DNA of 64,000 nucleotides from the NCBI GenBank assembly GCA_963575745.1, contig CAUYUJ010000325.1:558001-622000 (forward strand), given 5' to 3'. Under the pieces are notes generated by a model that saw only the letters and a program-made list of their open reading frames with translations, ran no database searches and was not told the origin of the DNA. Positions 12,739 to 60,011 of this stretch are shown piece after piece. The DNA comes from Prorocentrum cordatum. Lineage: Eukaryota. A program made the position numbers and the translations under genes. The first letter of the stretch is position 1; the number at the start of each line of letters is the position of its first letter.

Positions 12739-13234
12739 CTGTCATGCCTTGCCACTCGCCCTTTGCGCTCCCGCCTTTGCCGCCATCACTGCGCCTCGCC
12801 TTGCCTCGCCTGCACGGCAGCCGTACGGCACCTCATCATCCTTTCCCCGCGCCCCTCCCCCCGCATCCCTAACCTGGATGGGGCAATAATCGCCCCCCCT
12901 TGGATCCGCTGGGGGGTTTGGGCACGTGCTGTCAGAACATGTGGAGGGGGGGTGGAGGAGAAGGACGAGGAAAGGATGAGAAGGAAGAGGGGGAGGAGGA
13001 GGCGGAGGAGGAGGAGGTGGAGGGGGGGAGGCTGGGCAAGCTCCATCGGCAGGTTAGTCGCCCACTTTTCGACTGATATCCCACCCAGAGTACCCTGGGC
13101 TTGCGTGTATCCCCTGGGGTGGCCCCTGCCGCTGGCTTTTCTGACTGGGCCGGCCGGCCGCGCGCACTGCCCGCTATTCGCTCTCCCACCCGCTGCGCCT
13201 CGACGCTGCGCGCAAAGCCGCAGCGTCAAAGAAG

Positions 13235-14030
13235 TGTGTGTGTGTGTGCGTGCGTGTGTGTGTGTTGTGTGTTGTGTGTTGTGTGTTGTGTGTGGGTGTT
13301 GTTGGTGTATTGTGTGTGTGTGTGTGGGGGTGGGTGTGGGTGTGGGTGTGGGTGTGGGTGTGGGTGTGGGCATGGGTGTGGGTGTGGGTGTGGGTGCGGG
13401 TGCGGGTGTGGGTGTGGGTGTGGGTGTGGGTGTGGGTGTTGGTGTGGGTGTGGGTGTGTGTGGGTGTGGGTGTGGGTGTGGGTCAAGCTAGCCAGCTCGA
13501 GCGAGTCAAGCATGTCATGCCCAGTCCCACCCGCCCTCCCACAACATAAGAAACAGTGATGGCAGAACTAGGGGCTGCGCGGGCATTTCAGTGCGAGTGG
13601 AGGATACCCCAGGACACCGCATTGACGTCCGCGCGGGATGTGCGCCGCGTCCCATTCCCGCCACGCATTTCGCATCGTCGACGACAAGACTGGCCATGTT
13701 GAAAAGAACAACGGACACGTTCCACCCTCCCACAACATAAGAAACAATGCTGGCGCAACTGGGTGCTGGCGCGTAGTGGTAGTGGTAGTAGTAGTAGTAG
13801 TAGTAGCAGCAGTAGTAGTAGTAGTAGTACTAGTAGTAGAAGCAGTCGTAGTAGTAGTAGTCGTAGTATAGTAGTAGTGGTAGTAGTAGTAGTAGTAGCC
13901 GTAGAAGTAGTAGTAGTAGTAGTCGTAGTAGTAGTAGCAGCAGCAGTAGTAGTAGTAGTACTAGTAGTAATAGTAGTACTACTCGTAGTAGTAGTACTAC
14001 TAGTAGTAGTAGTAGTAGTAGTGGTAGTAA

Positions 14031-14062
<32 letters not shown>

Positions 14063-14156
14063 ATAATAGTAGTAGTAGTCGTAGTCGTAGAAGTAGTAGT
14101 AGGAGTAGTAGTAGTAGTAGTAGGAGTAGTAGTAGTGGTAGTAGAAGCAATAGTAC

Positions 14157-14197
<41 letters not shown>

Positions 14198-15650
14198 TGC
14201 GTGTGTGCGTGTGTGCGTGTGCGGGTGTGTGCATGCGTGTATGCGTGTGTGTGTGTGTGTGTGTGCGTGCGCGCGTGTGTGTGCGTGTGTGCGAGTGTGT
14301 GTGCGTGCGCGTGTGCGTGTGTGCGCGTGCGTGTGTGCGCGCTAGCGCGTGTGCGCGTTTGCGCGTGCGCGCGTGTGCGCATGTGCGCGCGTGCGCGGCT
14401 GCGCGTGTGCGCGTGTGCGCGTCTGCGCGCGTGCGCGGCTGCGCGTGTGCGCATGTGCGCGTGAGTGTGCGTGAGTGCGTGTGCATGTGCGTGTGTGTGC
14501 GTGTGTGCGTGTGTGTGTGCGTGTGTGTGCGCGTGTGGGTGTGTGCGTGTGTGTGTGTGCTGTGTGCGTGTGTGTGCGTGCGCGCGTGTGTGCGTGCGTG
14601 TGTGTGCGTGTGTGCGTGGGTGTGTGCGTGTGTGCGTGTATTCGTGTGTGGGGTGCGTGTTTGCGGGCGTGTGTTCGAGTGTGCGTATGTGCGTGGGTGT
14701 GTTCGTGTGTGCGTGTACGTGTGTGCGTGTGTGCGTGTGCGTGTGCGTGTGTGCGTGTGCGTGTGCGTGTGTGCGTTTTGTGCGTGTGTGCGTGCGTGCG
14801 TTGCGTGCGCGGTGAGCGCTGTGCGCGTGCGCGTGCGCGTGCGCGTGCGTGCACGTGCGCGTGCACGTGGGCGTGTTGCGTGTGCGTGTGGCATGCGCAT
14901 GTGCGTGTGTGTTTGTGTGTGTGCGTGTGCGTGTGCGTGTGCGTGTGCGCGTGCGCGTGCGTGGGCGCGTGCGTGTGCGACTGAGTGTTGCGTGTAAGTG
15001 TGGCGTGTCCGTGTGCGTGTGCGTGTGCGTGTGCGTGTGCGTGTGCGTGCCGTGCGTGCGCGGTGCGCGTGTGCGTTTGCGGTGCGCGTGCGCGTGCGTG
15101 TGCTGTGCGTGTGCGTTTGCGTAGTGCGTGTGTGTGTGTGCGTGTGTGCGTGTGTGCGTGTGCATGTGGGTGTGCGTGTGCATGTGCATGTGCGTGTGCG
15201 TGTGCGTGTGCGTGCGCGTGTCCGTGCGCGCGTTCGCGTGCGAGTGCGAGTGCGTGTGCGTGTACGTGTGCGTGTGCGTGTGCGCGTGCGCGTGCGCGCG
15301 AGTGTGCGTGTGCGCCTGCGTGTGCGTGTGCGCGTGAATGTCCGTGTGCGTGTGCGTGTGCGTGTGCGTGTGCGTGTGCGTGTGTGGGTGTGGGTGTGGT
15401 GTCTGTGTGTTGTGGGTGGTGTGTGTGGTGTGCGTGTGGTGTGTGTGGTGTGTGCATGTTGCGTGTGTCTGTTTGTGTGATGTGTGTTGTGTGTGTCGTG
15501 TGTGGTGTGTGTGTGGTGTGTGTGTGTGGTGTGTGTGTGTTGTGTGTTGTGTGTTGTGTGCGTTGTGTGTGTCGTGCGTGCGTTGTGTGCTGTGTGTGTT
15601 GTGAGTGTGTTGTGTGTGCTTTGTGTGTGTGCGTGCGTTTGTGTGCGTGT
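13235..15650 (+). repeat. Compound microsatellite block: (GT)n/(GGGTGT)n, (TAG)n at 13773-14195, and GT/GC mixed repeats
   Basis: Seen directly. It produces the His/Thr/Val/Cys-rich spurious ORFs. Confidence 0.95.
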
Positions 15651-15714
15651 CGGGGTCATACAATATGTTGGAAAGTGCGCGCCCGCAGGGTCGGGAATAA
15701 GAAAAGGAGGGCCG

Positions 15715-16195
15715 TAGCTTAAAGCTACCCCCCCTTTCGGAAAGGGGGGGGGAAGCTACCCCCCCCCCTTCCTTTGTTCTGCGCTATTGAACTGGGGCTG
15801 AGGAGGGCCCTAGCTGAATGGGGGGGGGTCGAAGCTTAACGCCCCTCTCCCCCCTGTGGGGGTCCGGGCCAAGCCCGGGCTCTCCTTTTCAAAGGGGGGT
15901 GGTTTCCGTAGCTACCCCCCCCTCTGGGCAAAGCGGGGGGGGGGCTCAAAAGCTGTCCTCCCCCCTCCCTTCTTTTCGGGGCCTGAGGCGGCCTGGGGTA
16001 AGCCCGGGCTCCCCTTTCCAGGGGGGGAGGCTTTCGAAGCTCCCCCCCGCCCCCTCCCTTCTGTGCGCCAGAGGGGGGTGCATTGCAAGGGGGAGGGCTT
16101 CCAAGCTACCCCCCCACTTCTTTTCGGAGCGGAAGGTTAACCCGGGCTCCTCTTTGCAAGGGGAGGGGGGGGGTTCGCAAGCTACCCCCCCCTCT
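15715..16195 (+). repeat. Degenerate short tandem repeat with AAGCTACCCCCC / CCCGGGCTC cores
   Basis: The cores recur about 8 times with G/C runs. Confidence 0.7.
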
Positions 16196-17279
16196 CGTTG
16201 GAAGGGGGAGTTCGTTGGAGATGTCCTCCAGATTGTTTAACCGAGCTGTTTTTTGCGACGTGGTCCGGGCCGTTCCGCCTGAGACGTCCTCGCAATTGTG
16301 GGCTCCGAGCTGCCGCGGGACAGGTTGTGTGGCCCGTTGCGCTGGAGAGAAGCTCGCGGCCCTGGGCTCCCAGAGGCCTTGTCCTGAGGTTGTGCGGGTC
16401 TAGTGGGGGCGCATGCGCTGTCCGGGGTGTTTTCGGGGTCGTTGGTTCCCGGAACGAACAATTTTGTTGACACACCTCCTGCTCCCATAAACCTCCCGTC
16501 TGGCCGAAGGAGCGGCGCACAGGGACATGCTGTACCAAAATCAGGTGCTCTGGGCTGTTTCGCTTCGGACACTCTCACAACTCCCGTTTCCGAGCTGGCG
16601 GCGATGCCGTTCGCGTGGTGTCCTTCGCGAGGACTCAGAGGTGCCCTTCGTGCAACTGCGGGTTGCCGCCGCCGCCGCCGTCGTCGCCGCCGTCGCCGCC
16701 GTCGCCGTGGTTGTCGTCGTCATATCGTCGTCGTTCGTCATCGCCGGCGTCGGCGTCGGCGTTGGCGCCGGTGGTGCGGGGAAGAGAGGGCGACCGAGGC
16801 AAGAGCACGAGAAGTGTCTCGAGGAGGAGGTTGAGGAGGATGAGGAGGACGAGGAAAAGGAGGATGAAGAGGATGATTTAGGAGGACGGGGAGGACGGGG
16901 AGGAGGAGGAGGAGGAGGAGGAGGAGGAGGAGGAGGAGGAGGAGAAGAGAGGGGAGGGGGAGGGGGAGGAAGGAGAGGGCTGGGGAGGACAAGGTAAGTG
17001 CGTTCGCGCCACATCTGCCATCCTACACCTTCCCCTCACCCCTTCTCATGGCTACTATTATTAATAGTATTATGAGTTGTCCTCACATTGAATCGGGAGT
17101 CCAACATGACCTTCATGCCTTCGAGGTGAAGGGAGGAGGACGAGATGAGGGCGTCAGGGTGAAGGGCTGGGTCGTTTGCTCTGGGTGTGGGTAGAATGGT
17201 TTGTTCGTTTGAGTGTGTGCCAGGGTGAGGGTGAATGCGGGACATGGGGTTCAGGGCGCGTAGATGGTGGCGGAGGCGG

Positions 17280-18591
17280 TGTCTGCACGTGCGCGTGCGT
17301 GTGCGTGCGCGCGGGTGTGTGCGACAGGGCGCGAGTGTGAGAGCGTGTGCATGTGCGCGTGTCTACATTTGTGTGTGCGTGTGCGCATACGTGTGCGCGC
17401 GCACGTTTGTGTGTATGTGTGTATGTGTGTGTGTATGTGTGTGTGCGTGTGTGCGTGTGTGCGTGTGTGCGTGTGTGCGTGCGTGCGTGCGTGCGTGGGT
17501 GTGTGTGTGTGTGTGTGCGTGGGTGTGTGCGTGTGCGAGTGCGTGTGCGTGTGCGTGTGCGTTTTTGTGCGTGTGCGTGTGTGCGTGGGTGTTTGCGTGT
17601 GCGTAGTGCGTGTGCGTGTGCGTGTGCGTTGATGTGCGTAGTGCGTGTGCGTGCGCGTGTGCCGTGTGCGTTGTGGTGTGCGCGTAGTGGCGTGTGCGCG
17701 TGCGTGTGCGTGTGGTGGTTGCGTTGGTTCGTGTGCGTCGATTCGTGCGTGTAGCGTGTGGTGTGGTGTGAGTGTGGTAGTGCGGCTGTGTGTGAGTGCG
17801 TGTGCGTGAGCGTTTTTTTTGTGCGTTTGTGCGTGTGCGTTCTTATCGTGCGTTGTGCCGTTGTGCCTGTGCTGTGCGTTTGTACTTTTTATTCATGCGA
17901 GGGTGCTCGTGTGCGTGTGCGTAGTGCGTCGTCGTGCGTGTGCGTTGGGCGTGTTGCCTGTGCTTGTGTTGTGAGGGTGCGTTGTGCGTTTTCGTTGCGT
18001 GTGCGTGTGCGTGTGCGTAGTGCGCGTGTGTGCGTGTAGTGCGTGATGTGCGTGTGTGCGTGTGCGTGTGGTGTGCGTGTGTGGGTGATGGGTGTGGGTG
18101 TGGGTTGGGTGTGGGTGTGCGTGCGTGCGTGCGTGGTGCGTGCGTGCGTGCGTGCGTTTGTGTGTGCGCGTTCTGTTTCGCGTGCGCGTTGTGCGCTGTG
18201 TTTATTCGTGCGCGTGCTGCGGTGTGCGCGTGTTGCGATTGTGCGGTGTGCGCGTCGTGCGCGTGTGCGCGTGTGCGCGTGTGCGCGTGTGCGCGTCATT
18301 ATTAGGTATATTCCATTTGTGCGCGTGTGCGCGTGTGCGCGTGTGCGCGTGTGCGCGTGTGCGCGTGTGCGCGTGTGCGTGTGCGTGTGCGTGTGCGTGT
18401 GCGTGTGCGTGTGCGTGTGCGTGTGCGGGCGTGTGGGCGTGTGGGCGTGTGGGCGTGTGGGGGCGTGTGGGGGCGTGTGGGTGTGTGTGGGGGTGTGTGT
18501 GGGTGTGTGTGATTGTGTGTGGGTGTGTGTGGGTGTGTGTGGGTCTGTGTGTGTCTGTGTGTGTCTGTGTGTGTCTGTGTCTGTGTCTGTG

Positions 18592-18639
<48 letters not shown>

Positions 18640-18705
18640 TCTGTGTCGGTGTCGGTGTCTGTGTCTGTGTCTGTGTCTGTGTCTGTGTCTGTGTCTGTGT
18701 CTGTG
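17280..18705 (+). repeat. Compound GT/GC microsatellite
   Basis: (GTGC)n, (GTGTGC)n and (GTGTCT)n tracts. Confidence 0.95.
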
Positions 18706-19642
18706 CCCCCCACCTTGGCAAAAGGAGGGGGAGGGGGGGAGCTTTCGGAGGCGGCAAGGGGGAACAAAAAGGGGGGGGAGCGGTGGGGGGCTTCGGGCAG
18801 GGGAGGTTCAAGGGAGGGGGGGGAGCTAAGGGGGGACCCTCCTCCCCTTTGCTCCGGCCCTGCGGGCGCGCTCTCTCGTTCGCCACGCAACGTGTTTCTC
18901 CTCCCCTCCCTCCTCACGCCCCCCCCTCGCCCCCCCGGCGCCAGCCTAGGCGCAGAATTGGCACGCCCTGAACGGGGACGGATGGAATGGGGACGGCGCT
19001 AAACCACAAATCCTGTAAAAAATCTACAGATGCCGCTGTTGGGCGGACGACTTCCGCCCAAACGCACAACATTCGCGGGGACACCGACAACTAGTCCTGT
19101 TCAAAGCGCCAGAAACTTAGGGAAGCAAACAATGAAATGGACAGAGAAACTCGCATGCCCGCGCGGCTTTCTCGGATCGGCGCAGGGGCCCCCTGGTCGC
19201 ACCTCCGGCACCGCTCCTGGCGCGATCCGCGCGCCAGGGAGGGGTGTCCAGCGACGATCCGAAAAATCCACGCGGACCTCGTGAGCGTGTTTTTATTCGG
19301 CGGTTCGACATTGGGCGGAAGGGGGGCGGGAAGGCGGGGGTCTGGCTCCGGACCTCTGCTTAGTGCAACCGTTTGGAACCGTGCGTCCTGTGGGGGAGAC
19401 TCCACCTGCTCGAAACAGGCGCCAAGAACAACCAAGATCTACCCCACGGGGGTGGGGGCGAGGGCCCGCGCCGATCGGCAAAACAATGAATAAAAAACGA
19501 TCGCTTCCGAGTTCTTATGCTGATGTCATCGTCTATCTGTCACGATTCTCCAGCCTCCAAAGCAGCGGCGGACTCGCGCGGCAGCGCAGCTGGATCCATG
19601 GTGAGCTTATCGTTGCGCCTGGCCGGGCTTCGGTCCACACAG

Positions 19643-19804
19643 CTGAGGGGGCCCTGGGACACACAAATAAATAGACACGAATAACTGGATTCCCCAAATT
19701 TTCCCATATGTACGTGGTTTTTGCCTTCCCCCCCACTTTCTATATTTTCCAATTTTTTCGGGGGAATCGACGATTAATTGTGTCTGTGTTTTTTCCCCTC
19801 CTGA
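19643..19804. mobile_element. ~158-bp interspersed element, copy 2; introner-like (GA-AG on the minus strand)
   Basis: CTGA direct repeat at 19643-19646 and 19801-19804. The minus strand reads TCAG|GA...TCAG|. Confidence 0.7.
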
Positions 19805-20036
19805 AAAGCTCGGGCCTCCAGCGGCCGCTCGGGACGATCCAGGATGCCCCGCACGCCCTCGACGAGTCGCAGCTGCTGGAAGCCACCCCGGGCGACGAAA
19901 AACCGGACAGCCGACGATAGTTCGGCGGCAACTCGTGGGAGCCTCCCTCCCATGATTCCCAGGTGGACGACATGATTAGGTCGGGCATGTCCCCCTACAG
20001 GCCGAAATTGTCAAAAAATGCCCCCCTAAAATTATC

Positions 20037-20577: not shown

Positions 20578-20769
20578 AAAAATCACCAACAGTTGTCGAA
20601 AAATCGTCCCACGACTATTTCTTTACTACTTCCAAACCATCCTGTGGTGTTGGGTCCTCGTGTTGAAGAGACGGTGCCCCGCGTCTCTCCTTCCTTCCTC
20701 CTCCCCCTCCTCCCTCCTCCCTCCTCCCTTCTCCCCCATCCTCCCTCCTCCCCCTCCTTGCCTTTGAGC

Positions 20770-21000
20770 TCGGCACACCTCTCACACGTTTCGTAGCCCC
20801 ATGGGGAGCTCCACCGAAGGTCCCAATTGCACAGCCCGCATGCGTCCGCCACACCCAGCACAACGCTTCGTGGCCCTATAGGGAGCTCCACCGAAGGTCC
20901 CAGCGGGGGGGGGGCGCATGTCCGCCACACCCAGCACGGCGTTTCGTGGCCCCATAGGGAGCTCCACCGAAGGCCCCAGTGGAGGGGGGCGCATGCGTCC
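20770..21000 (-). repeat. ~70-75-bp minisatellite (relative of the 90-bp unit), left part, split by the copia insertion
   Basis: Unit GCATGCGTCCGCCACACCCAGCAC...CGTGGCCCCATAGGGAGCTCCACCGAAGGCCCCAGTGG resumes in register at 30590. Confidence 0.9.
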
Positions 21001-21257
21001 TGTGAAAGTTGTATTAACAAGGATGTGAGTTATAGGATGATGTTTAGAATTATCTATGTTGCTGCTCTCGCTCGCTCATGCTTGCATGCTCTTGTTCACT
21101 ATTGCCATTTGTGGCTTGGACCCGCCCAGCTGTGGCGGGAGGGTGGACGCATTCTACGACTGTCTAGCTTGACATCGGAATAAGATCAGATCACACTCTA
21201 TCTATGGCTTCTTGCATCAAGAGGTTGTGGGTGGAGAGATCAGGATCAATATTTACA
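21001..21257 (+). repeat. 5' LTR (257 bp)
   Basis: TGTGAAAG...ATTTACA, aligning end to end with 30330-30589 with roughly 15 differences by eye. Confidence 0.95.
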
Positions 21258-21258
21258 C

Positions 21259-21270
21259 TGGTAGCGGAGC
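21259..21270 (+). promoter_or_regulatory. Primer binding site, probably for initiator tRNA-Met
   Basis: TGGTAGCGGAGC, 1 nt after the LTR end, resembles the iMet PBS forms TGGTAGCG (Ty1) and TGGTATCAGAGC (plants). Confidence 0.85.
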
Positions 21271-21532
21271 TGAATCAGTCCACGGTACGAGGATTGCATA
21301 CAGAGTGGCCTTGCAGACAAAGATGCTGGCGCTCAATTACATCCTCGCGGTGCTTAACCACTGCGCTCATCAACAGATCACGGTGATCGACAAAACGCTC
21401 AAAATCATTACCTACAACAGCTTGGACGGAGATCGATATATCAACAACATCCCGGGCGAGCAGCAGAACTACAGCAACGATAGAGACAGCTACTACATCG
21501 GTAACAAGCTCAGTAGCATCACAGTCATCAAG

Positions 21533-24500
21533 ATGACGTCCAGGCAGCAGCAGCAGTTCAATGACGGCCCCCTCTTCGTGGACAAAGAGGGCGTGGTACA
21601 CTACAACGGCGACCCATCCTACGGAGAGGAGTTCGCGGAGCGTGCGATACTCGGCTACCACGCGAGCGAGGAGAAGATCAAGAAGCTCTATGCGATCAAG
21701 CTCAAGAATTCTCTAAATGGACGAGCGTGGACACTTACACGAAAGAAGGTTGAGATCAGTACGCAGGCAGTTTTGGACGAAGCAGGTAATGACCCACTTG
21801 CTGCAGTCAAACTGGTGGTAACTACAGTACGACAGGCGTGCGAGAGAATCGCACCATTACAGAAGCAGCAAGCGTTCGAGGAGTATTTATTCCGAGGTTT
21901 TCGCAATCGAACGGAGTCTGTGCAGGACTACATATCGAGACGAGAGACGGAGTACGAGCGGCTCAAGTCACTTTCAACGAACACGACAGTCAGCGAGGAC
22001 CTACGGACATACTCTCTACTAAAGCTAGCGAACATCAGCAGGCAAAAACACAAGGCAACCCTTGGCCAATGCAACAACGAATACATCTGGGACGACGTGA
22101 CGGTGGCCATGCTGATACAGCTGGACAGCACAGGCCGAGACGATCGTGGACATGGACGATACGGAGCCTACCCGGTGGACTACGACGACGAAGAGGAAGA
22201 AGCTCTACTCGGAGATGAATGTGCACCGTGCGATGAAGACGTTTTCCCGAGTGATGAGGACTACGACGCACTTGCAGCGGACATCGACGAGTTCGAGGGA
22301 GTGATTGATGGCGTAGACCCGGACGAGATCAGCCAGGAGGAGTGCGACACCCTGGCGACGGAGGCTCAACGTCTTGGCTGGAAAGCTGGACGGCGCAACC
22401 ACAAGCCCAACTACAAGCAGGCCCGGGAGCGGCTTGCTCAGAGCAAGTCGAATAGAGGCTGGAAGGCCAACATCAACAAGCAGGGCTCCATCAAGATGGA
22501 CAGCAAAGAGGCTGAGGATAAGCTGAAGCAGATCAAGGCAGGCACGAAGTGCAACGCGTGCCACAAGAAGGGTCACTGGAAGGGTGACCCCGAGTGCGAA
22601 AAGACGAGGTCACCAGCGAGTGGATCCAGTACGCTACAGCGTGGAGGACGAGGAGGCGGACGTGGAGGACGAGGCTTTCACGGACGACCTGGAGGTTTTC
22701 TACGACGAGCTGGATTCGCAATGGCGACCGCGGTCAAGCTGCTGATGGCGGACAGCTCGATGGATATGACCGCCATTCACAGTGTCAGCGACCAGCTGGC
22801 AAGCATAGACGTGGCGATGGAGGAGATCACGAGTCTGACGAAGGTGAGAATCGACACCGAGGAGCAGATAGTGAACACCTACGCGGTATCAACAGCAGGA
22901 GACCAGCCGAACTTCCAAGAGAGGATCGACCAGGCACACGAACCATACCCAGTACCTGGAGAGCATCAAGCACAAGAATCTGACGAACCCCTCAGCACTC
23001 CAGTGAGTTCAACGAGCAGACCTACACCAGGGACGTGGTCGAGGACGGATCCCAGCAGACCAAGTACAGACTACCTAGAAGATGACAACACGGAGACCGA
23101 CCTACAAAAGATACGAGAACGTGCAGAGCAGATCGCAGCATTGTGGGTAAGCTGCGAGAACATGGAAGCGGCCTACAGGGACTATATGGATTTCTGTTTG
23201 GACTGGGCCCTACATCGTTTCCAGCAGCTCATGCACATCACCATGGATATGGCACCGAACGGTCTCAGGAATCTGGCCTACGATCTATGCCAAGCAGCCT
23301 GGGACAGGACCTCGGAGCTTCGTGTCATCGTAAGGAGTACTTGCGAGCGCCTACCGATTGGAGTACGACCGACATGGTTGTGGACGCAACGCCGAGCTGG
23401 AACCAACTACGCTCCAGAGGGAATTGGGCGGCAGCAACCTTGCGAGGAGCTGGAAGAGATTGAAGCCTACGCAGTACGAAAAGGACCTATTCCAGATGGA
23501 CATGCTGTACTGGACACTGCGTGCCTACGTGGATGTGGAGGTTCAATATCACTGGACGGCTACACAGAGGACGGCAGAGTCACCACGCGGATGAGAGGAT
23601 CATCCATGCGCTTCCGAGGCGTGAATGATAGCGCCCCGGTCATGGCAGAACTAGAACAAGAGGTGACGGCTGGACTTGCTGGAGCTGACGTGAACCTACG
23701 CTTCCAGAGGTTGCCGAAGTCAAAGACGCCAATACTGCTGAGCATCCACCAGCTGGAGGAGCTCGACACAGTGATATACATCAAGGATCAGAAGGCGGAC
23801 TTCAAGGCGATCAACAAGTACGGAGTGCCTCTTAACAAGACGGAGAAGGGACACCTGACGATCTCGCTCAAGGAGTGGCCGAAGAAGGAGACGACAAAGA
23901 TCGAGCCATCAGTCACGTCCGACGAGATCGACATCTGGAATGCGGAAGTCCAGGAGATCAATAAGGGCATCCTACGGCGCAAGCAGAGGAAGCAGATCGA
24001 GGCGTGGGAGAAGGAGATTCAGGACAAGCTGGACCAGTGCCAGCAGTTCGTGGACACGCTGAAGGCGGACCCGGAGGAGAAGCGGCCCATCATCTGCGAG
24101 CTCTACGCAGGTGGCATGGCAGCCACATCAGAAGCTCAGCAGCGGCGGCATCCAGTGACGAGGCCGAGGGACATCCTGATCGGGGACGACCTGCTGGACG
24201 CGAAGTCGCAGAAGACCGTCCTGAAGCAGCTGAACGAGGATGACCCCTACGTGACCATTGTGGGTTTCCCCTGCGACCCGTTCACAAACATATCCCACAT
24301 GTTCCCGAGGGACACGAAGATGCGCAAGTTGGCGATCGGCATGAAGCACTTGCAGTTTGTCAAGAAGATCTGGCTCAACTGCAAGCGCCGAGGAGCTCAT
24401 ATGCTACTGCAGAACCCATTGACGTCAAGAGCCTGGCAGCTTATGCCATGGCTGGGCTCAGAGTTCGTAAGCGCGATGATGCACCAGTGCGCCGAGGGCA

Positions 24501-25591
24501 GCAACCTGGTGGACTTCATGGGCGATCCGGTCAAGAAGCCGACGAGGTTCCTGACGACGGCCATCATGCTCGGCAAGAAGCTCAACAACATCAGGTGTGA
24601 CGAGCAGCACGTACACACGAGCGTGATCAACAGGCCGAAGGGAACAGCCTCGAGCCTTGGGAACTGGACCAAGGAGCTGGCCAATACGATCTTGGACGGC
24701 ATCGAGGATCAGCGAGACCTCGAGAAGCAGCATGGTGGCTACGCCCGGTACGCCAACAACTTCGACGACATCGACTGTGACGAGTTCGAGGCCAACCCTG
24801 CGGAGACGGAGGCGCCGATGCACGCTAGCGCGGCGGCGATCTTCAGCAAGCATGGCGAGAACATCGAGATGGCGGAACGGACGGCGGTGCCACCACTCAT
24901 GCGAGCAGCTATCAAGAAGATACACAAGAGCCATTCACATGGACCCTACAAGGAGTCACTAGTACGGTATCTACAGCATGGTGGAGCTAGCCGACGAGCG
25001 GTACAAGCAGCACGTCTCTTCAGATGCACGACATGTGAAGAGCAGGCTCGGACGGCAGCGAGACCTACGGCAGCTCAGCCTAAGGTTAAGGACTTTAACG
25101 AAACCATCAACATGGACTTCATGATCATACCCGACCCGGACAAGAACATGCTCGTAGTGCTTGTTATCGTGGACGTGGCCTCGGACTTCACCGTGGCGAT
25201 CTACACGTGTCCCGGATCGAGACCTACGGCAGAGTTAGCAAAGAAGGCTTTCGAACTCGGATGGCTTACCTGGGCCCGGCCACCACACGTCGTGGAGCAG
25301 GACCAGGACTCTACCTTTATGGGCGAGTTTGAGACGCTATGCAACGACCTGGGCATTGTGATCAACAATGCGGCTCCAGAGGCTCACTGGCAGATGGGCA
25401 AAGTAGAAAGGAAGATACGATACCTGAAGGAGATGGCGACGAGTGTCTTCAACGCTGGGGACGTTCGTGGTCAAGATTCGGTTGCAGCAGCAGTACGTGG
25501 TATGGCCAACGCGTATCATTCTGGAATCGACTACACCTCCAACAGATCTGCTCGGAATCCTTTTTCAAGGCAGCAAACTCATCAGCATTGA
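21533..25591 (+). CDS. Copia Gag-protease-MTase-like-integrase polyprotein (N-terminal part)
   Basis: Zinc knuckle CNACHKKGHWKGDPEC (22550-22597); protease VLDTAC (~23510); ELYAG / GFPC / QNP (24098-24420); integrase HxxxxH...CTTC (24920-25040) and D(25114)-D(~25301)-E(~25406). The frame breaks after ~25515. Start ATG inferred. Confidence 0.9.
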   Translation: MTSRQQQQFNDGPLFVDKEGVVHYNGDPSYGEEFAERAILGYHASEEKIKKLYAIKLKNSLNGRAWTLTRKKVEISTQAVLDEAGNDPLAAVKLVVTTVRQACERIAPLQKQQAFEEYLFRGFRNRTESVQDYISRRETEYERLKSLSTNTTVSEDLRTYSLLKLANISRQKHKATLGQCNNEYIWDDVTVAMLIQLDSTGRDDRGHGRYGAYPVDYDDEEEEALLGDECAPCDEDVFPSDEDYDALAADIDEFEGVIDGVDPDEISQEECDTLATEAQRLGWKAGRRNHKPNYKQARERLAQSKSNRGWKANINKQGSIKMDSKEAEDKLKQIKAGTKCNACHKKGHWKGDPECEKTRSPASGSSTLQRGGRGGGRGGRGFHGRPGGFLRRAGFAMATAVKLLMADSSMDMTAIHSVSDQLASIDVAMEEITSLTKVRIDTEEQIVNTYAVSTAGDQPNFQERIDQAHEPYPVPGEHQAQESDEPLSTPVSSTSRPTPGTWSRTDPSRPSTDYLEDDNTETDLQKIRERAEQIAALWVSCENMEAAYRDYMDFCLDWALHRFQQLMHITMDMAPNGLRNLAYDLCQAAWDRTSELRVIVRSTCERLPIGVRPTWLWTQRRAGTNYAPEGIGRQQPCEELEEIEAYAVRKGPIPDGHAVLDTACLRGCGGSISLDGYTEDGRVTTRMRGSSMRFRGVNDSAPVMAELEQEVTAGLAGADVNLRFQRLPKSKTPILLSIHQLEELDTVIYIKDQKADFKAINKYGVPLNKTEKGHLTISLKEWPKKETTKIEPSVTSDEIDIWNAEVQEINKGILRRKQRKQIEAWEKEIQDKLDQCQQFVDTLKADPEEKRPIICELYAGGMAATSEAQQRRHPVTRPRDILIGDDLLDAKSQKTVLKQLNEDDPYVTIVGFPCDPFTNISHMFPRDTKMRKLAIGMKHLQFVKKIWLNCKRRGAHMLLQNPLTSRAWQLMPWLGSEFVSAMMHQCAEGSNLVDFMGDPVKKPTRFLTTAIMLGKKLNNIRCDEQHVHTSVINRPKGTASSLGNWTKELANTILDGIEDQRDLEKQHGGYARYANNFDDIDCDEFEANPAETEAPMHASAAAIFSKHGENIEMAERTAVPPLMRAAIKKIHKSHSHGPYKESLVRYLQHGGASRRAVQAARLFRCTTCEEQARTAARPTAAQPKVKDFNETINMDFMIIPDPDKNMLVVLVIVDVASDFTVAIYTCPGSRPTAELAKKAFELGWLTWARPPHVVEQDQDSTFMGEFETLCNDLGIVINNAAPEAHWQMGKVERKIRYLKEMATSVFNAGDVRGQDSVAAAVRGMANAYHSGIDYTSNRSARNPFSRQQTHQH

Positions 25592-25642
25592 GACGGACAG
25601 TTCTGGCGAGGACGAGGCCCCAGCCAGGGCCATTTCAGCAAG

Positions 25643-28104
25643 GTGATTTCAGCCAACCTAAAGCGCAACCTGCATGCACGATGGCATGGACCTGCCCGGT
25701 GCCTGGGCAAGGATGAGCACGGTTACTGGCTGATCCATAACAGGATCCCGATCCTAAGTTCACCCAGTCTCCTTCGAAGGGCGACTGAGCACGAGGTGAG
25801 CACCATGCAGTTTACCGACCTGTTTTCAGATGGCGGACCTGCACGTGGACGAGCTGGTCAGCGTGGTTTTCTGGACCTTCGAGGTCAACAGTATAACCCA
25901 GCACGAGATGATCAGCAGCCAGACCAGCAGCCCGATCAACAGCCAGATCAGCAGCCAGATCAACACCAAGATCACCGAGATCCAGGACATCAGCAGCATC
26001 CTGGACAGGACGATGTTCCACCACAGCAAGCAGGAGGACAAGGTGATGCACCCTCGAGTGCACCGACGACGGCACCAGCAGCACCTGCCCACGGCAACGT
26101 CGAGCTGACGAAGCCAGCGGACAGCAGGAAGCGACGATCGGAAGTGGTACACGATAACGACGTGATGCCAATGCGTCAGAGGCTGGACGACGAGTACGAG
26201 ACAGTACTTGCTGATCAAGATCAAGCGGAGGAAGATCTACGAGTACGACTTGTTCGAGCGCACCAAGCTTGGGACGCCATCTTGGGAGCAGTGGCGGCCA
26301 GCAGCCAGGGCAAGACCGACCTGAGGCAGCTGGATAACGTCAGGAACGCCGCTCTTCTACCTGATCCAACACCTGGGTACAAGATCGAGAGGCGGCGGCT
26401 TCTCAACTTGGACACGCGCGACCTGGTTCAAGATATCTCGAGAGTGGACTGGATAGCCAATCCTCAGATCATCGACGATGTGGTATCACAAGACCCCATC
26501 ACGATCATCGAGGAGATCACTCTGGGAAAGGAAGAGGAAGCTGGAGATGGACCAGGAGGTGGCCAACAGCCTGCAGCAGCCCCGCAGGAACCTACCAACA
26601 CGGACGAGACCATGGAGGAACCTAAGGAGGTGAAGCGCGGAGGCAAGAAGCACACCAAGAAGGACCTGAAGCTCAAGCAGACCAAGCGGGGCGACGCTCA
26701 GGACGATCGAGCTCAGCTTCGAGTACCTGCCAAGATCCAGAGGCACATGGAGGAACGCCAGAAGGTGGAGGAAACGGCAGCAGTACCAGCAGAGGTACCG
26801 CAAGATCAGCCGGCTACATCATCGTCCAGTACGCGACAGCCTGCACAGGGCAAGCGCCAGGAACACCCAGTCACGATCAAGGAGTTATTGCTGGACGATG
26901 TGCCGATCAGCATCAAGCGAGCCCGGGCACAAACTGGGCCAGTCAAGCAGCTGGCAGATACACCGCTGCTCGTCGAGGCGTTCGTGGCCCAGCGGATGTG
27001 CAGCCAACCGACGAGAGCCAACAAGCATCAGGAGATCAACTTGAAGACGCTCGGCGACGACAAGCTCAAGTGGAAGAAGATGCAGCAGGCGGTGGAGAAG
27101 GAGTGGAACACGTGGTGCAAGTACGATGCAGCAACCCACATATCAGGTGCAGCAGTCGACAAGGTCGACCCGGACAAGATCCTGAGCTCCAAGGTGGTCT
27201 GGACCGATAAGGACCCCACGACCTTCGAGCCGAAAGCCAGGATCTGTGGGAGAGGCTACGAGGAGGAGTTTGACGACAAACTACGACGGGACTCACCTAC
27301 AGTCTCAGCACAGATGACGCTACTCTTGTGCAGCATCGTATCAAACCTCAACTTCGACCTAGTCATCGCGGATGTGAAGGGAGCCTTTCTGCAAGGCAAA
27401 TCCATCACACGCGAGCTCTACTTTCATATCCCGACGAACCTCGGGAAGTGCAACATCCCGGGAGTGAAGGCAGGCGACCTGCTGAAGTTAAACAAGAGCA
27501 TCTACGGGACCAACGATGCAGCTCGTGCGTGGTATGTGGCACTACGCGAGACGCTTGTGAAGCTTGGATGGGAAGGCCTGAGCTTCGAGCCCGCGACCTT
27601 CATCAAGCGCAATGCGAAGGGCGCGATCATCGGGATCATGTGCCTGCACGTGGATGACTTCCTCATGGGCATCAAGCAGGACGACCCGGAGGGCGCCAAG
27701 ATCATGAAGGACCTGCAGAAGGAGATCGACTTTGGCGAGGTCAAGTACGCGAGGAAAGAGCAGGCGACGTTCTGTGGCCGGGGCTACAAGCAGGACAAGG
27801 ACGACAGCATCAACGTCACCATGGAGGCCTACGTGAAGTCGATGCAGACTGTACGTATCTCCAGAGAGCGCAGCAAGGCACCAGATAGCGCCTTGACCCA
27901 TGCAGAGCATCGTGGACTACGAATGGTAGTTGGACAATTGCAATGGGCTGCGCGGATGATATGCTTCGAAGAGGCCTTCGAGGCATCCCGACTGGCATCT
28001 ACGCTGGGGGCTCCGACGGTGAAGGACCTACAGGACGGCCCCACCACGTCCCCCATGTCTGTCTGGAGTCTCCCACCCCCCCCCCCCAAAGTCCCCCCCC
28101 TCCC

Positions 28105-28156
<52 letters not shown>

Positions 28157-29873
28157 ACAAACCCCCCCCTCCCCCCCCTCCCCAACCCCCCCCCCCTCCC
28201 ACGTCCCCTCCCAATCTGCCTCTTCACGTCGCCCTGTCCCCCCCCCAATACCCCCCACCCCCCCCCCAATAATCCCCCAACCCCTCCCACCAACCCCCCC
28301 CCCCCCACTACACAAAATTGTCCACCCCCCACAATCCCCAGATCCCCCCCAATGCCCACCCCCCCATTACGCGGCCATCAGGCGGATACAGAAGCGGGAC
28401 GACTTGCTGATCAGGTTCTCGGCAGGTCTGAACCTGTGGGAGACCATGGTGATCAATGTCACCGACGGTGCTTTTGACAATCCGCCGAAGCACAGATCAC
28501 AACGCGGACACTTCATCATGCTGGGCGACAAGAAGATCAACGAGGACCACAGTAACAAGTACAAGGTACATTGCATTGGGTGGCAGTCTTCCAAGATTCA
28601 ACGAGTGGTGCGATCTACTCTATCGGCGGAGGCCTACTCATGTGCGGACTCTGTGGACATGTTAATATGGACAAGGTCGACCCTGGCGGAGATCCTGTAC
28701 CCGGAGATGGACATGACCGAGATTATGCATGACACCTGCCCGGTGAAATTCATTTCGGCGACCGACTGCTAGAGCCTATGCGACACGATCATAAAGGAGA
28801 AGATTTCTATGACGGACAGGAGGCTTGCTTTGGAAGTGGCTATATTGCGGCAGTCACTCAAAGAGGTCAGCATCAAATTGGTCAAGAGCGAGCAGATGCT
28901 AGCGGACTGTTTGACGAAAGTACTTCCAGGAGGCTACGCGAGGAAGATAGTTACATCCAACCTGTGGACTCTTGGGCCTGATGACAGGGCACCATCAATA
29001 CGCGGGCGAAAGCTTGTCGGACCAGAAAAGGTGGCAGCCAACAAGGAGGTAGACGAGCTGAACGCGAAGATGGCCAAGTACGTCAAGCAGGAGCTGTGCA
29101 ACGACACCCGGAGGGGCGACGAGGAGATCTCTACGTGGCCGGTGGAGACGCACAACTACGTGGACGAGTGCTTCTACGACGACAAGGACGAGGTTCAAGA
29201 CGAGGACTACGTCGAGGCATTTTACACAGAAGAGCTAACGGACAACTACCTGATGGAGAGGAGTGGCGCGCAGAGAACCATCCAGATACCAGACCAAGCT
29301 GTAGTTATGTTTCAACTTTGTGCACTTGCAGTGTATGGAGTTTGTCTTTCGATGTCTCCTGCGGTGGTGAAAGTCGTCTCTATCATCGCGGGTATCATCA
29401 TATTTATTTACGTAATGAAGCCTAAGCAGAACGACGACGAGGACATGTTTGATCCGACGGAGGTGGATAGTTCAAGCAGCGACAACCTGTTCAAGCCGGA
29501 GTTGCCCGAGAAGCATGTCAAGGTCAAGTCCAGGACGGCGAAGGCTACGCCGAAAACTACAACGATAACACTCGCAGTACGAGCCGATCCAACGACCTAT
29601 GACGATGATATCATGGGAGATGGACCAATCATGCTGGGAGATAGTGCTCTACTGAGACAGTGGCTGGAGACCATGGGGCCGACGATAATCAGGAGTGGCA
29701 AGTGCGCGGGCGACAGCTATGAGACGATCTACACGAAGGACAGGCACTACGCAAATTGCCTAGGACGGCGTCTCAAGCTGGACGCAGACGAGAGCAGGAG
29801 TTATAATCTCGACCCGAGCATCAAGGTTTACATTGCATACATCATCGTCATGTCAGCAGTACGTGTGCGCTGA
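25643..29873 (+). pseudogene. Copia RT-RNase H and C-terminal extension (interrupted)
   Basis: RWHGPA; RT motifs KARICGRGY, ADVKGAFLQG, KSIYGTNDAARAWY and HVDD (27647-27658); RNase H VTDGAF, RSTLSAEAY, TDC*SL and MLADCLTK. Lesions: C-rich insert at ~28037-28369 with frameshift, and in-frame TAG at 28770-28772. Confidence 0.92.
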
Positions 29874-30329
29874 GGATGATGAGTGATTTGAGTTATCATG
29901 TTCAGATAATGAGTGTTTTGGGTTACCATTCCAGATGATGAGTGATGTTTGGTCACCATCTGCAGATGAGGAGTGGAGGCGCCCCCTCAAGAGCTCAGGT
30001 AAACATTTCATATCTTAATATATTTTGCTCGGTGCGCAGACCTCGGGTAAAGATTTTAGATGTTGATCAGTGAGTGGGTTTCTTCTGTCTTAGTTTATGT
30101 TGCTCGGTGCGTTGATTTCTCTTATCGTGATATATGTTGCTTGGTGCACGGACGGTGTTTGACCGTTCGAGCAGAGAAACATTTTGATTTATTTTATGGG
30201 ATATAGATTGCTTGGTTCACGGACGATAGGTTGATCGTTCAAGCCAATAGCAATAATCAAAATATTTCGGGAGGCTTGCTGCAGAATTTTGCCACGGCAT
30301 TTATTTAGCAACGTTTTTCCTTTTTCCTG

Positions 30330-30589
30330 TGTGAAAGTTGTATTAGCAAGGATGTGAGATATAGGATGATGTTTAGAATTATCTATGTTGCTGCTCTCGC
30401 TCGCTCATGCTTGCACTCTCTTGTTCACTATTGCCATTTGTGGCTTGGACCCGCCAGCTGTGGCGGGAGGGTGGACGCATTCTACGACTGTCTAGCTTGA
30501 CATCGGAATAAGATCAGATCAATACTCTATCTATTTCTTCTTGCATCAAGAGGTTGTGGGTGGAGAGATTTTGATCAATATCCCGACCA
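30330..30589 (+). repeat. 3' LTR
   Basis: TGTGAAAG...CCCGACCA, homologous to 21001-21257. Confidence 0.93.
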
Positions 30590-31375
30590 GTCGCCACACC
30601 CAGCACGGCGCTTCGTGGCCCCGTAGGGAGCTCCACCGAAGGCCCCAGTGGAGGGGGGCGCATGCGTCCGCCACACCCAGCACAGCGCTTCGTGGCCCCA
30701 TAGGGAGCGGCCCCAGTGGGGGGGGGGGCGCATGCGCCCGCCACACCCAGCACAGCGTTTCGTGGCCCGATAAGGAGGTCCACCGAAGGCCCCAGTGGGG
30801 GGGGCGCATGCGTCCGCCACACCCCGCACAGCGTCGCTCTTCGCGGTCCATTGGGAGTCCACCGAAGGCCCCAGCGGGCGGGGGGGCGCATGGTCGCCAC
30901 CACCAGCACGGCGCTTCTTCGTGCCCCATAGGGAAGCTCACCGAAGGCACCGAAGGTACTTGTGGGGGTGGGGGGGGGGGGGGCATGCGTCCGCCACACC
31001 CAGCACGGCGCTTCGTGGCCCCATAGGGAGCTCCACCGAAGGTTCCAGTGGGGGGGGGGGGGGGCGCATGCGTCCGCCACACCCAGCACAGCGCTTCGTG
31101 GCCTCATAGGGAGCCCCACCGAAGGACCCAGTGGGGGGGGCGCATGCGTCCGCCACACCCAGCACAGCGCTTCGTGGCCCCATAGGGAGCTCCACCCAAG
31201 GTCCCAGTGGGGGGGGCGCATGCGTCCGCCACACCCAACACGGCGCTTCGTGGCCCCATAGGGAGCTCCACTGAAGGCCCCAATGGGAGAGGGGAGCGCA
31301 TGCGTCCGCCACACCCAGCACGGCGCTCCGTGACCCCATAGGGAGCTCCACCGAAGGCCCCAGTGGAGGGGGGCG
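30590..31375 (-). repeat. ~70-75-bp minisatellite, right part
   Basis: About 10 units continuing the array at 20770-21000. Confidence 0.92.
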
Positions 31376-33356
31376 CGCGCCGTGTGCGGCCGCGCCCCAC
31401 TAAGCCCAACACCCGTGGATACGACTCCCAGCTGACTGAAACGCTCTTCAAGAACACCTTTCCCCAAAGTCTTAAAACAGTCCAGGAGGGATCGTGATAA
31501 GAGAACCCCCTCCTAAAAACAGTCTTGGGAAAAATGCACTTCCAACCCGTGTGCATAAAAACGTGCCGAAGCCGAGGGACCAGTGCATGCATGAGCGCGC
31601 AACAGAAGGCAAAATGGTTGAGCTTGGGCTCCTGATCTGGATCGCTCTTGGCGTGGTCAGCCCCTGCCAGTGGCATTGGATCATGCGGCGTGCTAGCGCG
31701 CGGTGCGATTCGCAACCTCGGCCGCGTTTTTGCACAGATGATTTCCGTTCCGACGCCGTCTCAGAGTGCTCAGGGGCAGGGGGGGATCGCAATGCAATTC
31801 ACCTACAGTGCGCCCAACGAACTTGAAACAAATGGTTGAAGTGACCCCATGGCCCAGGGGCATACTTGACAGCGAGTACACGAAAGGTTGCGAGACGTTG
31901 CGCCCCATCGGCGCTACCCAAGGACATCGGCTATGCCGCGGGACCAGCGGCCCTGACCGCTCGAAACACGTAACCCAAAATGACAGTTTGTCGTTTGTAC
32001 GTCTGCATTCGTTTGTCCGTGACAGTTGCAGTTGTCGTCGTTGTCATGCGTCGTGTAAGTTTAGTGCACAGGTTACGTCGGGCTCCCAGCGTTTAGGAAG
32101 GTGTGCGGGTTATTGAGGTTGTGCACCGCGCGCGGTTTCCAACATGGTTGGGCGGAGGGATTCTTGGGGCATCTCGGTGGGGACCTCCGACAGCTCAAGT
32201 GAGTCTGGGGGGGGTGGCCCCACCCACCCCTCGCGCCATACTCGTTCCCTCCTTACCAGTGCCATGGAGCGGATGGGGGTGGCATATGGATTTCACGTAG
32301 ACGAAACAGGCACGCGCAGATGTTAGAGCGCTCCCCCCCCCTCGAGCAGCTGGATTCGTTCCCTCGCTTCCTTGGCTAAACCTACTCTCTGCGAAATCTT
32401 TGTTGTGTGTGGGGGGGGGGGCGGGCGGTGACTCGCGAAGCGTCAAGGATAAGAGAAGCGACTGTGGTTGTTTCACCTTTGAAAAATGCACCGCTCAATG
32501 GATTTCGAAACCTTCGGAGTCATGATGGATGCCACTAGTCCGAATGCAACGCCATCCCAGGACCCGTGCGAATATGATTCTGCGAAGGGTTTGTTTATTC
32601 ATCCCTCCCGTCTTTTGCTGTCCTACTCACCATCCTCCGCCCGTTGGATTCCCGAAGGGAGGGGGAAGGCTAACCTCGATTACATCCCTGGTCGCTGCTG
32701 CGGTCGATCTTCCGCCGCCCCCCAAGCCATAGTGAGAGACCAGGCGACGGCAACATGCTCAAACCAATCCCCATCAGCTTAAGCGTGAGACTCGGAACAC
32801 GAGTGGGCGAGCAACAGAGAGCATGGACACGAAGTGGATACTTAAAGCAGGATGGCGAAAGATGTTGAGGACAGGGTGGATGAGAATAGGGGGGCAATCC
32901 GTCAGCACGTGCATGATACGGGTTAGCTGACACGAAGAGCGGCCACAAGGGGACAGCCAGGCAAGAGCGGATGGAGGGGTCGGGAAGAAGGGGGAGACGG
33001 CGGAATGGAAGCTACGTTGATGGTTCAAGAGCTTCGTTAGGCAAGACTCCGAAACGACGTGATGAAGTATCACACCTTGTATCTCGGGTAGCGGAGCGCA
33101 ACCTCTTCCCTGCATGCACGGGCACGCCGCCAAGGTCTGGAAGAAGCGAAGAGGGGCCAATCGACAGGCATTGGTGGACTTCACCAAGCTTTCCAAAAAA
33201 TCTCATGGCCCCGACGCTGGGCCTCAGGACCTCGCGACTAGCGAGGGCGGCAAACAAAAGGTGGGACCTCGGTGCTGCCGAATTCTAGGAAGGCGCGTCG
33301 CACTACCTCCCCTGGCAGTGCCCCGCAAGCGCCTTGCTGGAACGCGCCACCGACGA

Positions 33357-35664: not shown

Positions 35665-35764
35665 NNNNNNNNNNNNNNNNNNNNNNNNNNNNNNNNNNNN
35701 NNNNNNNNNNNNNNNNNNNNNNNNNNNNNNNNNNNNNNNNNNNNNNNNNNNNNNNNNNNNNNNN
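35665..35764. other. Assembly gap (100 N)
   Basis: Run of n. Confidence 1.
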
Positions 35765-36121: not shown

Positions 36122-36154
<33 letters not shown>

Positions 36155-59773: not shown

Positions 59774-59868
<95 letters not shown>

Positions 59869-59921
59869 GACTACGACGACTACTACTACTACTATTACTA
59901 CTACTACTACTAGTACGACTC

Positions 59922-59954
<33 letters not shown>

Positions 59955-59955
59955 T

Positions 59956-60011
<56 letters not shown>

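Follow-up and report, generated by a model that had tools for sequence, protein, structure and literature searches.

A compact C5-methyltransferase-like domain between protease and integrase in a Ty1/copia lineage of dinoflagellates

In a 64,000-nucleotide stretch of the genome of the dinoflagellate Prorocentrum cordatum (contig CAUYUJ010000325.1 of assembly GCA_963575745.1, positions 558,001 to 622,000 of the forward strand; hereafter the window), a Ty1/copia-type long terminal repeat (LTR) retrotransposon carries an additional domain between its protease (PR) and integrase (IN). As judged from remote sequence similarity and structural models, this segment is very probably a genuine, highly divergent homologue of the C5-cytosine methyltransferases (C5-MTases), the class of the DNA methyltransferases (DNMTs). 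It forms an integral part of the Pol of a large Ty1/copia lineage of dinoflagellates, in which the order is gag-PR-linker-DNMT-like-IN-reverse transcriptase (RT)-RNase H (RH). Outside the family, the domain is closest, in sequence and in predicted structure, to short DNA methylases of phages and giant viruses. Retrotransposon-borne DNMTs are already known; what is new here is the class of element, the position of the domain, its compact form without a target-recognition domain (TRD), and its invisibility to Pfam. An earlier note on this DNA, made from the sequence alone, had proposed a C5-MTase-like domain without a large TRD at this position, and the predicted fold, the profile alignment with Dcm, the matches to PHROG families, and the conserved architecture reported below support it.

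Motifs of the domain in the window copy

All six motif strings named in the earlier note lie where it had placed them, in one frame and inside a 1472-codon open frame. The domain, its linker, and the motifs are listed here; residue counts, here and below, refer to 125 aligned relatives of at least 150 amino acids (aa), the window and a few near-duplicates included.

23930-24067, + strand: helical N-terminal extension or linker; its K-G...Q-A-W-like segment is conserved in family alignments, and the helix opens the model of a clade-B member (see below)
24068-24742, + strand: compact DNMT-fold domain (predicted), ~225 aa, no large TRD
24092-24115, + strand: motif I-like ICELYAGG; Glu, Tyr, and one Gly of the S-adenosylmethionine (SAM) loop kept; aligns to Dcm motif I
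24167-24196, + strand: RDILIGDDLL, motif string in frame
24257-24283, + strand: motif IV IVGFPCDPF; candidate Pro-Cys nucleophile Cys at 24272-24274; aligns on the Dcm Pro-Cys
24404-24418, + strand: motif VI LLQNP; Gln codon CAG at 24410-24412 in place of the family Glu; aligns on the Dcm Glu-Asn-Val
24482-24499 and 24533-24556, + strand: HQCAEG and KKPTRFLT, motif strings in frame
24488-24616, + strand: Cys147 (24488-24490), Lys163/Thr165 (24536-24544), and Cys183/His187/His189 (24596-24616), conserved in 108-121 of 125 rows
24665-24694, + strand: WTKELANTIL, motif string in frame

Canonical C5-MTases have a motif I of the form acid-x-Phe-x-Gly-x-Gly and a motif VIII of the form Gln-x-Arg-x-Arg. 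In the window copy, motif I reads E-L-Y-A-G-G-M-A. There is no canonical motif VIII in this domain, where Lys-Lys-Pro-Thr stands on strand 164-169 instead, and no TRD between motifs VIII and IX. The motif-VIII-like strand is separated from the C-terminal helix by ~35 residues with a Cys/His cluster, and the domain therefore has no conventional target-recognition domain. Cys147, Cys183, His187, and His189, located within and beside these residues, look like a zinc site, and the stretch would be a putative zinc-stabilised mini insert at the position of the DNMT TRD.

Remote sequence similarity to C5-methyltransferases

A HMMER search with a 241-aa stretch against 1.84 billion representatives, in which relatives were counted as 50%-identity clusters, detected 654 relatives at E ≤ 1e-3 and 84 at E ≤ 1e-10. 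Because relatives are this numerous, and because the motif residues picked out in the earlier note are the conserved ones, the segment is more than a chance resemblance. When the family profile was aligned with Escherichia coli Dcm alone using hhalign, the probability was 43.9 (E 2.4e-4, 78 columns); the two Pro-Cys motifs coincided, and Glu-Asn-Pro fell on Glu-Asn-Val. Alignment with 15 Dcm orthologues raised the probability to 73.3 (E 3e-5, 139 columns) and placed motifs I, IV, and VI in register. These probabilities are conservative, since the Dcm profile was built from close enterobacterial orthologues and has low diversity (effective number of sequences [Neff] of the template, 2.2).

Viral families provided further sequence links. 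The family phrog_757, annotated "DNA methyltransferase," was matched by 3 of 32 family members (P0108, P0092, and P0147), with P0108 reaching E 3.9e-10 over 183 of the 247 profile positions. Among 26 members scanned in detail against the PHROGs, three matched phrog_757, three (P0052, P0087, and P0089) matched phrog_2882, which is also annotated "DNA methyltransferase," one matched a transposase PHROG, and 19 matched nothing. The window domain itself had no PHROG match at E ≤ 0.01. In the ESM Atlas, the neighbour ranked third was a cluster automatically named as a cytosine-5 MTase family.

Predicted fold

The window domain was modeled with AlphaFold2 from an alignment of 68 relatives (predicted local distance difference test [pLDDT] 91.6; predicted template modeling score [pTM] 0.89). 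As the earlier note had anticipated, the model has a class I Rossmann MTase fold, with DNMT topology. Motif I follows strand 1 (residues 15-18), Pro-Cys follows strand 4 (residues 68-71), Gln/Glu-Asn-Pro ends strand 5 (residues 117-123), Lys-Lys-Pro-Thr lies on the strand at 164-169, and the chain closes with a C-terminal helix, an arrangement that is that of the DNMT core. A Foldseek search of the PDB returned 63 matches at E ≤ 1e-3 (best E 2.9e-5), and the best 50 of these 63 were all DNMT3A/3B/3C or DNMT2 chains, again in line with the note. The model of a clade-B member, P0037, had a pLDDT of 86.6, and its best 50 Foldseek PDB matches were likewise all DNMTs. In structure comparison, M.HhaI, DNMT3A/B, and MET1 outscored Dnmt2.

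Among predicted viral structures, the best match was an unnamed 210-aa protein (E 3.7e-8, template modeling [TM] score 0.60/0.68, root-mean-square deviation 3.9). Further top matches were a putative DNA methylase of Lactococcus phage P087 (212 aa) and a putative cytosine MTase of Tetraselmis virus 1 (218 aa). Together with the phrog_757 and phrog_2882 matches of the relatives, these agree with the likeness to compact viral or phage MTases that the earlier note had seen in the motif pattern.

Conservation and loss of SAM contacts in the family

Residue counts at the conserved positions of the domain are as follows.

Position 17: Glu, 113/125
Position 19: Phe/Tyr, 107/125
Position 45: Gly, 107/125
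Position 47: Asp, 96/125, plus Asn in 20
Position 66: Pro, 119/125
Position 74: Pro, 112/125
Position 75: Cys, 120/125
Position 121: Glu, 119/125
Position 122: Asn, 94/125
Position 123: Pro, 122/125
Position 126: Ser, 106/125
Position 129: Trp, 112/125
Position 147: Cys, 119/125
Position 163: Lys, 121/125
Position 165: Thr, 113/125
Position 183: Cys, 118/125
Position 187: His, 108/125
Position 189: His, 113/125

The earlier note had made its reading depend on conservation of Pro-Cys and motif I and had asked whether family copies keep the Glu of motif VI. Of the 125 rows, 120 keep the Cys of Pro-Cys and 119 the Glu of motif VI. Motif I held up in part: its Glu (113 rows) and Phe/Tyr (107 rows) are kept, but its glycine is found in just 49. 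Following strand 2, the acidic position holds Asp in 63 rows, with Ser in 34 others and Thr in 14. The state of the glycine and that of the acid are linked: Gly and Asp occur jointly in 44 rows, both are missing (Ser/Thr for the acid) in 48, and Asp stands without Gly in 19. Some members have an F-G-G-x-G-G motif I, and deep lineages keep a DNMT-like motif I, the acid, and G-x-D.

We mapped the traits on a FastTree phylogeny of 115 distinct rows, from which the trait columns had been removed (midpoint-rooted, local support only). Rows lacking both traits fall almost entirely into one clade (42 of 44; inner branch support 96), referred to here as clade B, and those with Asp but without Gly cluster in a single clade of 16. 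The rows with Gly and acid (44 of the 115) make up deep, paraphyletic lineages, the window's included. The trait changes state 13 times on the tree, compared with a mean of 55.0 after shuffling, and 0 of 200 shuffles was as low. P0003, P0013, P0006, and P0154 group with the window (support 98), and this group belongs to the lineages that have retained Gly and acid.

Architecture and hosts of relatives

In a Pfam scan of 46 relatives, rve and/or RVT_2 was found in 20 (rve in 16, RVT_2 in 10, both in 6); the scan returned no other transposon enzyme families. The DNMT-like domain is N-terminal to rve in 16 of 16 cases, at a distance of 101-143 aa in 15 and 385 aa in one. Contigs of 8-9 kb from several sources encode full-length polyproteins of 2,646-2,971 aa. 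One intact relative, P0154 (2646 aa), is collinear with the gag and RNase H-like regions of the window element and has the DNMT-like domain between them, at residues 750-981. P0006, which shares its 90% cluster with P0154, aligns with both the DNMT-like domain and the integrase of the window.

Clade-B proteins (P0059, P0062, P0082, and others) have a low-complexity Ser/Arg/Gly-rich linker of ~350 aa between protease and DNMT-like domain, and their protease lies ~450-500 aa upstream of the domain. A conserved helix, K-G...I-x-Q-A-W..H..D, directly precedes the domain in this clade. A D-S/T-G/A motif within 400 aa upstream of the domain was found in only 2 of 30 long relatives, which raised the idea that the conserved Cys and His residues belong to a cysteine protease. 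This idea was rejected in view of the predicted DNMT fold and of the location of the C-terminal region of the protease in clade-B proteins, ~450-500 aa upstream.

Five organisms, all dinoflagellates, are named for members or for the 90% clusters that contain them: Heterocapsa arctica, Durusdinium trenchii, Polarella glacialis, Breviolum minutum, and Prorocentrum cordatum. Separate homologous-protein searches gave 0, 3, and 5 matches, which are too few to describe the taxonomic range, and a Joint Genome Institute (JGI) metagenome scan with a single protein query found no relative. Three short fragments, P0226-P0228, labelled as the green alga Pyramimonas sp. CCMP1952 (EukProt), are in the 90% cluster of Prorocentrum cordatum and Polarella glacialis polyproteins. 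They could be due to contamination, mislabelling, or recent transfer.

Proposed function and alternative explanations

These data suggest a mechanism in which a compact DNMT was most likely captured from a gene of phage or giant-virus type. In intact copies of the lineages that keep the SAM loop and the acid, including the window's lineage, the domain would bind SAM, flip a pyrimidine into the Pro-Cys/Glu pocket, and methylate it at C5. It may do so beside, or fused to, integrase, on the cDNA of the element or at the integration site, and its role would then be analogous to that of the DNMTs carried by dinoflagellate long interspersed nuclear elements (LINEs) and DIRS elements. For the full reading (a TRD-less C5-MTase of viral-type origin that is SAM-dependent in the SAM-loop lineages and acts with integrase on cDNA or target site), we see the balance as even.

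Several observations weigh against this reading. The earlier note had proposed PF00145 as a check, and this profile gave no match on the window domain even at E ≤ 1; it matched 0 of 46 relatives at E ≤ 1e-3 and, at E ≤ 10, only 2 of 68 (best E 0.047). Searches of the PDB sequences with phmmer and with the family profile yielded only chance-level matches and no DNMT. Generic Rossmann dehydrogenases score just 1-2 Z units below DNMTs. Canonical motif VIII and the TRD are absent, as is the Gly-Asn of motif X in most members, and the first glycine of motif I is found in fewer than half of the rows (49 of 125). The combined loss of Gly and acid in 48 rows, with Pro-Cys and Glu-Asn-Pro kept, is unlike what a purely SAM-dependent function would predict. 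Finally, the window copy itself cannot be active.

The leading alternative, for which the coupled loss of SAM contacts argues, is a DNMT-derived module that no longer methylates in most or all of the family and serves either as a base-flipping or covalent DNA-binding targeting unit or in SAM-independent C6/C5 chemistry. In the 48 rows where both the SAM-loop Gly and the motif II acid are replaced, Pro-Cys, Glu-Asn-Pro, Lys163, and the Cys/His set are kept, and essentially all such rows are one clade (42/44, support 96). The modeled clade-B member is still predicted to have a DNMT fold (pLDDT 86.6, all of the best 50 PDB matches DNMT), and the domain always stands just before integrase. However, the deep lineages, the window's included, keep motif I, the acid, and G-x-D, which argues that the ancestral enzyme was SAM-dependent and is still under constraint; we regard loss of methylation across most or all of the family as rather unlikely. 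A precedent for SAM-independent activity of this fold did not come up, although no search aimed at one was made. DNMT3L, a catalytically dead DNMT-like partner without the catalytic motifs, offers a precedent for a DNMT fold kept in a non-catalytic role, although copia clade B differs from it in keeping Pro-Cys and Glu-Asn-Pro and losing the SAM loop instead. It is doubtful, in our estimate, that the clade without SAM contacts uses the DNMT-type attack on C6 in the absence of SAM, either as a covalent tether of the intasome to a flipped base or to act on 5-methylcytosine (5mC) or 5-hydroxymethyluracil, the modified pyrimidines by which dinoflagellate transposons are marked and silenced. If it does, the DNMT fold would have been put to a new purpose, enzymatic or targeting, in the most abundant transposon superfamily of dinoflagellate genomes.

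The C5-MTase reading also has to be set against other enzymes and against artefact. A Dnmt2-like RNA m5C MTase acting on the genomic RNA of the element or on its primer tRNA is improbable, given that M.HhaI, DNMT3A/B, and MET1 score above Dnmt2 in the structure comparison, that the sequence links go to phage families annotated as DNA methyltransferases, and that a position beside integrase suggests DNA as the substrate. We consider it very improbable that the segment is a generic Rossmann domain of another kind (dehydrogenase-like or some other enzyme) whose motifs resemble those of DNMTs by chance. Two independent models have only DNMTs among their best 50 Foldseek PDB matches, three motifs are in register with Dcm, a PHROG DNA-methyltransferase family is matched at E 3.9e-10, and Pro-Cys and Glu-Asn-Pro follow strands 4 and 5, as in DNMTs. 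The decayed state of the copy and its location in satellite DNA might suggest that the arrangement is an artefact of this one locus, produced by mis-assembly or by part of a host gene becoming joined to copia; this is scarcely credible. All 16 relatives that have an integrase match show the same order, as do intact polyproteins of 2,600-2,970 aa from several sources, and contigs from four runs of four studies cover the domain, one of them spanning 23462-24714 without a gap. The artefact reading is refuted by the conserved order in relatives and by this contig coverage.

Comparison with known methyltransferases and elements

SymbioLINE-Dnmt, SymbioDIRS-Dnmt3, and KnitGypsy-Dnmt3 were described by de Mendoza et al. 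2018 (PMC5890265), whose available text says of Symbiodinium Copia that it "lacks any DNMT domain." A 2025 survey (PMC12344493) names "LTR Copia" among the DNMT3-carrying retrotransposons in the portion accessible to us, citing de Mendoza 2018; this survey and a 2026 preprint (10.64898/2026.05.21.726589) add the Ty3/gypsy-type EpiLTRs. No dinoflagellate copia element carrying its DNMT between PR and IN appears in the accessible portions of these two sources. The Symbiodinium copia elements of Chen et al. 2018 (PMC5776459), as presented in the sections available, have IN, RT, and RNase H only. A search of the main text of full-text articles turned up no account of a PR-DNMT-IN order in copia.

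Like SymbioLINE-Dnmt and SymbioDIRS-Dnmt3, as these appear in the available text, the window element is a dinoflagellate retrotransposon with a C5-MTase-type domain in its coding region, the idea being that the element brings its own methylase (PMC5890265). Those elements are of the LINE and DIRS types and have Pfam-named DNMT domains, whereas the domain described here belongs to a Ty1/copia element, lies between PR and IN, is ~225 aa long, lacks a TRD, and is not seen by PF00145. KnitGypsy-Dnmt3 of Klebsormidium and the EpiLTRs of Cymbomonas/Euglena are also LTR retrotransposons with a DNMT in the pol open reading frame (PMC5890265; 10.64898/2026.05.21.726589). According to the parts of these sources at hand, they differ in being of the Ty3/gypsy type, in carrying full Dnmt3- or DNMT4-related domains at other positions in pol (such as its 3' end), and in belonging to another group of hosts.

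The compact phage and giant-virus methylases (phrog_757, phrog_2882, P087, and Tetraselmis virus 1) are of the same size class and fold, with E values from 3.7e-8 to 1.8e-5 and TM scores of up to 0.68 for the best structural matches. They also account for the only significant family-level sequence matches (E 3.9e-10); their function is assigned by annotation only. In contrast to the copia domain, to which they are just 12-19% identical, they are free-standing viral genes. M.HhaI and the catalytic domains of DNMT3A and DNMT3B carry canonical motifs VIII to X. They are 8-9% identical to the copia domain and contain a TRD, compared with ~35 residues in the copia domain, which has Lys-Lys-Pro-Thr at motif VIII.

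Among dinoflagellate retrotransposons, only LINE and DIRS elements are known to bring a cytosine methylase of their own. Copia, which outnumbers the other superfamilies in dinoflagellates, is stated to be without a DNMT in the available text of the founding paper (PMC5890265). If copia Pol holds a cryptic DNMT, this would be a further independent capture, apparently of a mini-methylase of viral or phage type. Element-encoded methylation could then far exceed Pfam-based counts in these unusual, heavily methylated genomes. The domain is also an example of how divergent members escape Pfam-based censuses of epigenetic domains in transposons. The lineages that keep and lose the SAM contacts, with the catalytic Cys and Glu retained in both, would provide a natural experiment on a TRD-less DNMT fold beside integrase.

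Anatomy of the host element

The element spans 21001-30581 (~9.6 kb) and is of the Ty1/copia type, with the order gag-PR-X-IN-RT-RH, X being the DNMT-like domain. Its assignment rests on the RVT_2 reverse transcriptase, the integrase upstream of it, the PR-IN-RT-RH order, and flanking LTRs that are ~95% alike. The 1472-codon open frame extends over 21173-25588 and is followed by one TGA, after which the same frame resumes to 28474. A third open stretch, 28023-29870, is in a different frame from the first two.

20761-21000, no strand assigned: 76-bp tandem-repeat array in the 5' flank of the element; the array resumes at 30592-31378
21001-21252, + strand: 5' LTR, 252 bp, 95.3% identical to 30330-30581
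21530-23000, + strand: gag-like region, with a CCHC zinc knuckle at 22550-22579
23510-23524, + strand: aspartic protease active-site motif LDTAC (motif reading)
24923-25513, + strand: integrase, with an HHCC zinc finger from 24923 and a D,D,E core at 25106-25411
27173-27835, + strand: copia-type reverse transcriptase RVT_2 (PF07727, E 1.1e-15, residues 528-748 of P0002)
28400-29130, + strand: RNase H-like C-terminal region of Pol, 46-48% identical to residues 1988-2221 of P0154
30330-30581, + strand: 3' LTR, direct repeat of 21001-21252

The likely insertion target is the 76-bp array, which flanks the element at either end; the unit at 20923-21000 is 97% identical to that at 30592-30669, and the copia element appears to have inserted into this satellite array. 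No target-site duplication is evident at the LTR ends. The TGG... stretch at 21259-21270, after the 5' LTR, we take to be primer-binding-site-like.

The gag-like region is 34% identical to the N-terminus of the intact relative P0154 over ~550 aa. P0154 also has VIDTAA at the same distance from its DNMT-like domain (-195 aa) as LDTAC has in the window, where the protease region gave no Pfam protease match. Pfam rve did not match the integrase region of the window itself; this region is 41% identical (E 9e-46) to residues 369-565 of P0006, which carry a Pfam rve match.

On the helical linker upstream of the DNMT-like domain, one sub-threshold Pfam match, Thymidylat_synt (E 2.4e-4; 20.8 bits, with a cut-off of 24.3), was judged to be due to chance. 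It covers 23822-24097 (residues 884-975 of P0001), just upstream of the domain. Thymidylate synthase likewise uses a cysteine attack on pyrimidine C6.

Past the RNase H-like part that matches the relatives, the open frame continues for ~250 codons (29130-29870) and includes a long hydrophobic stretch at ~29320-29460. This extension had no Pfam match above the cut-off and no match among the fetched relatives.

State of the window copy

The window copy is dead, and the element as a whole is decayed. The Gln for Glu at 24410, which the earlier note had pointed out, is real and private to this copy: it is the sole Gln among the 125 rows, 119 of which have Glu. The closest fragments, P0004 (93% identity), P0007 (81%), and P0003 (53%), all have Glu-Asn-Pro. 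Because its catalytic Glu is Gln, the domain of the window copy is predicted to be inactive.

Contigs of the four runs from four studies were aligned on the element at a likeness of at least 85%. Lesions of the window copy include the following.

25514-25654, + strand: lesions in the C-terminal part of integrase, comprising a break at 25514/25516, a TGA at 25589-25591, and 17 nt missing at 25647-25654
28040-28368, + strand: private 329-bp insertion rich in proline codons, skipped by contigs of all four runs

At the 25514/25516 break, sequence that is present in other copies is missing from the window, the TGA at 25589-25591 is in frame, and the 17 nt missing at 25647-25654 are likewise present in other copies. 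The 329-bp insertion shifts the frame between RT and RNase H, and its removal restores the frame (read with X at the joint). A private TAG stop is located at 28770-28772, where the other copies have A at 28770 in all four runs. Over the domain, the gap-free contig covering 23462-24714 has 20 differences from the window. The domain differences shown in all four runs, at 24286 and 24469, are synonymous, as they fall on the third positions of Thr and Val codons. The inserted stretch at 28040-28368 is C-rich; one run covers it at very high contig depth, which suggests that this low-complexity sequence is abundant in its own right.

Other features of the window

Across the window, 13 long open frames were tested and had no Pfam match. 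Long arrays of repeats with periods of 8-15 bp and an extreme strand composition occupy 13200-20000 and 58900-60000; within 14001-16000, the GC skew reaches 0.43 and the AT skew is -0.59. A run of 100 N at 35665-35764 marks an assembly gap, and the 2-kb stretch at 36001-38000 has a G+C content of 73.6%.

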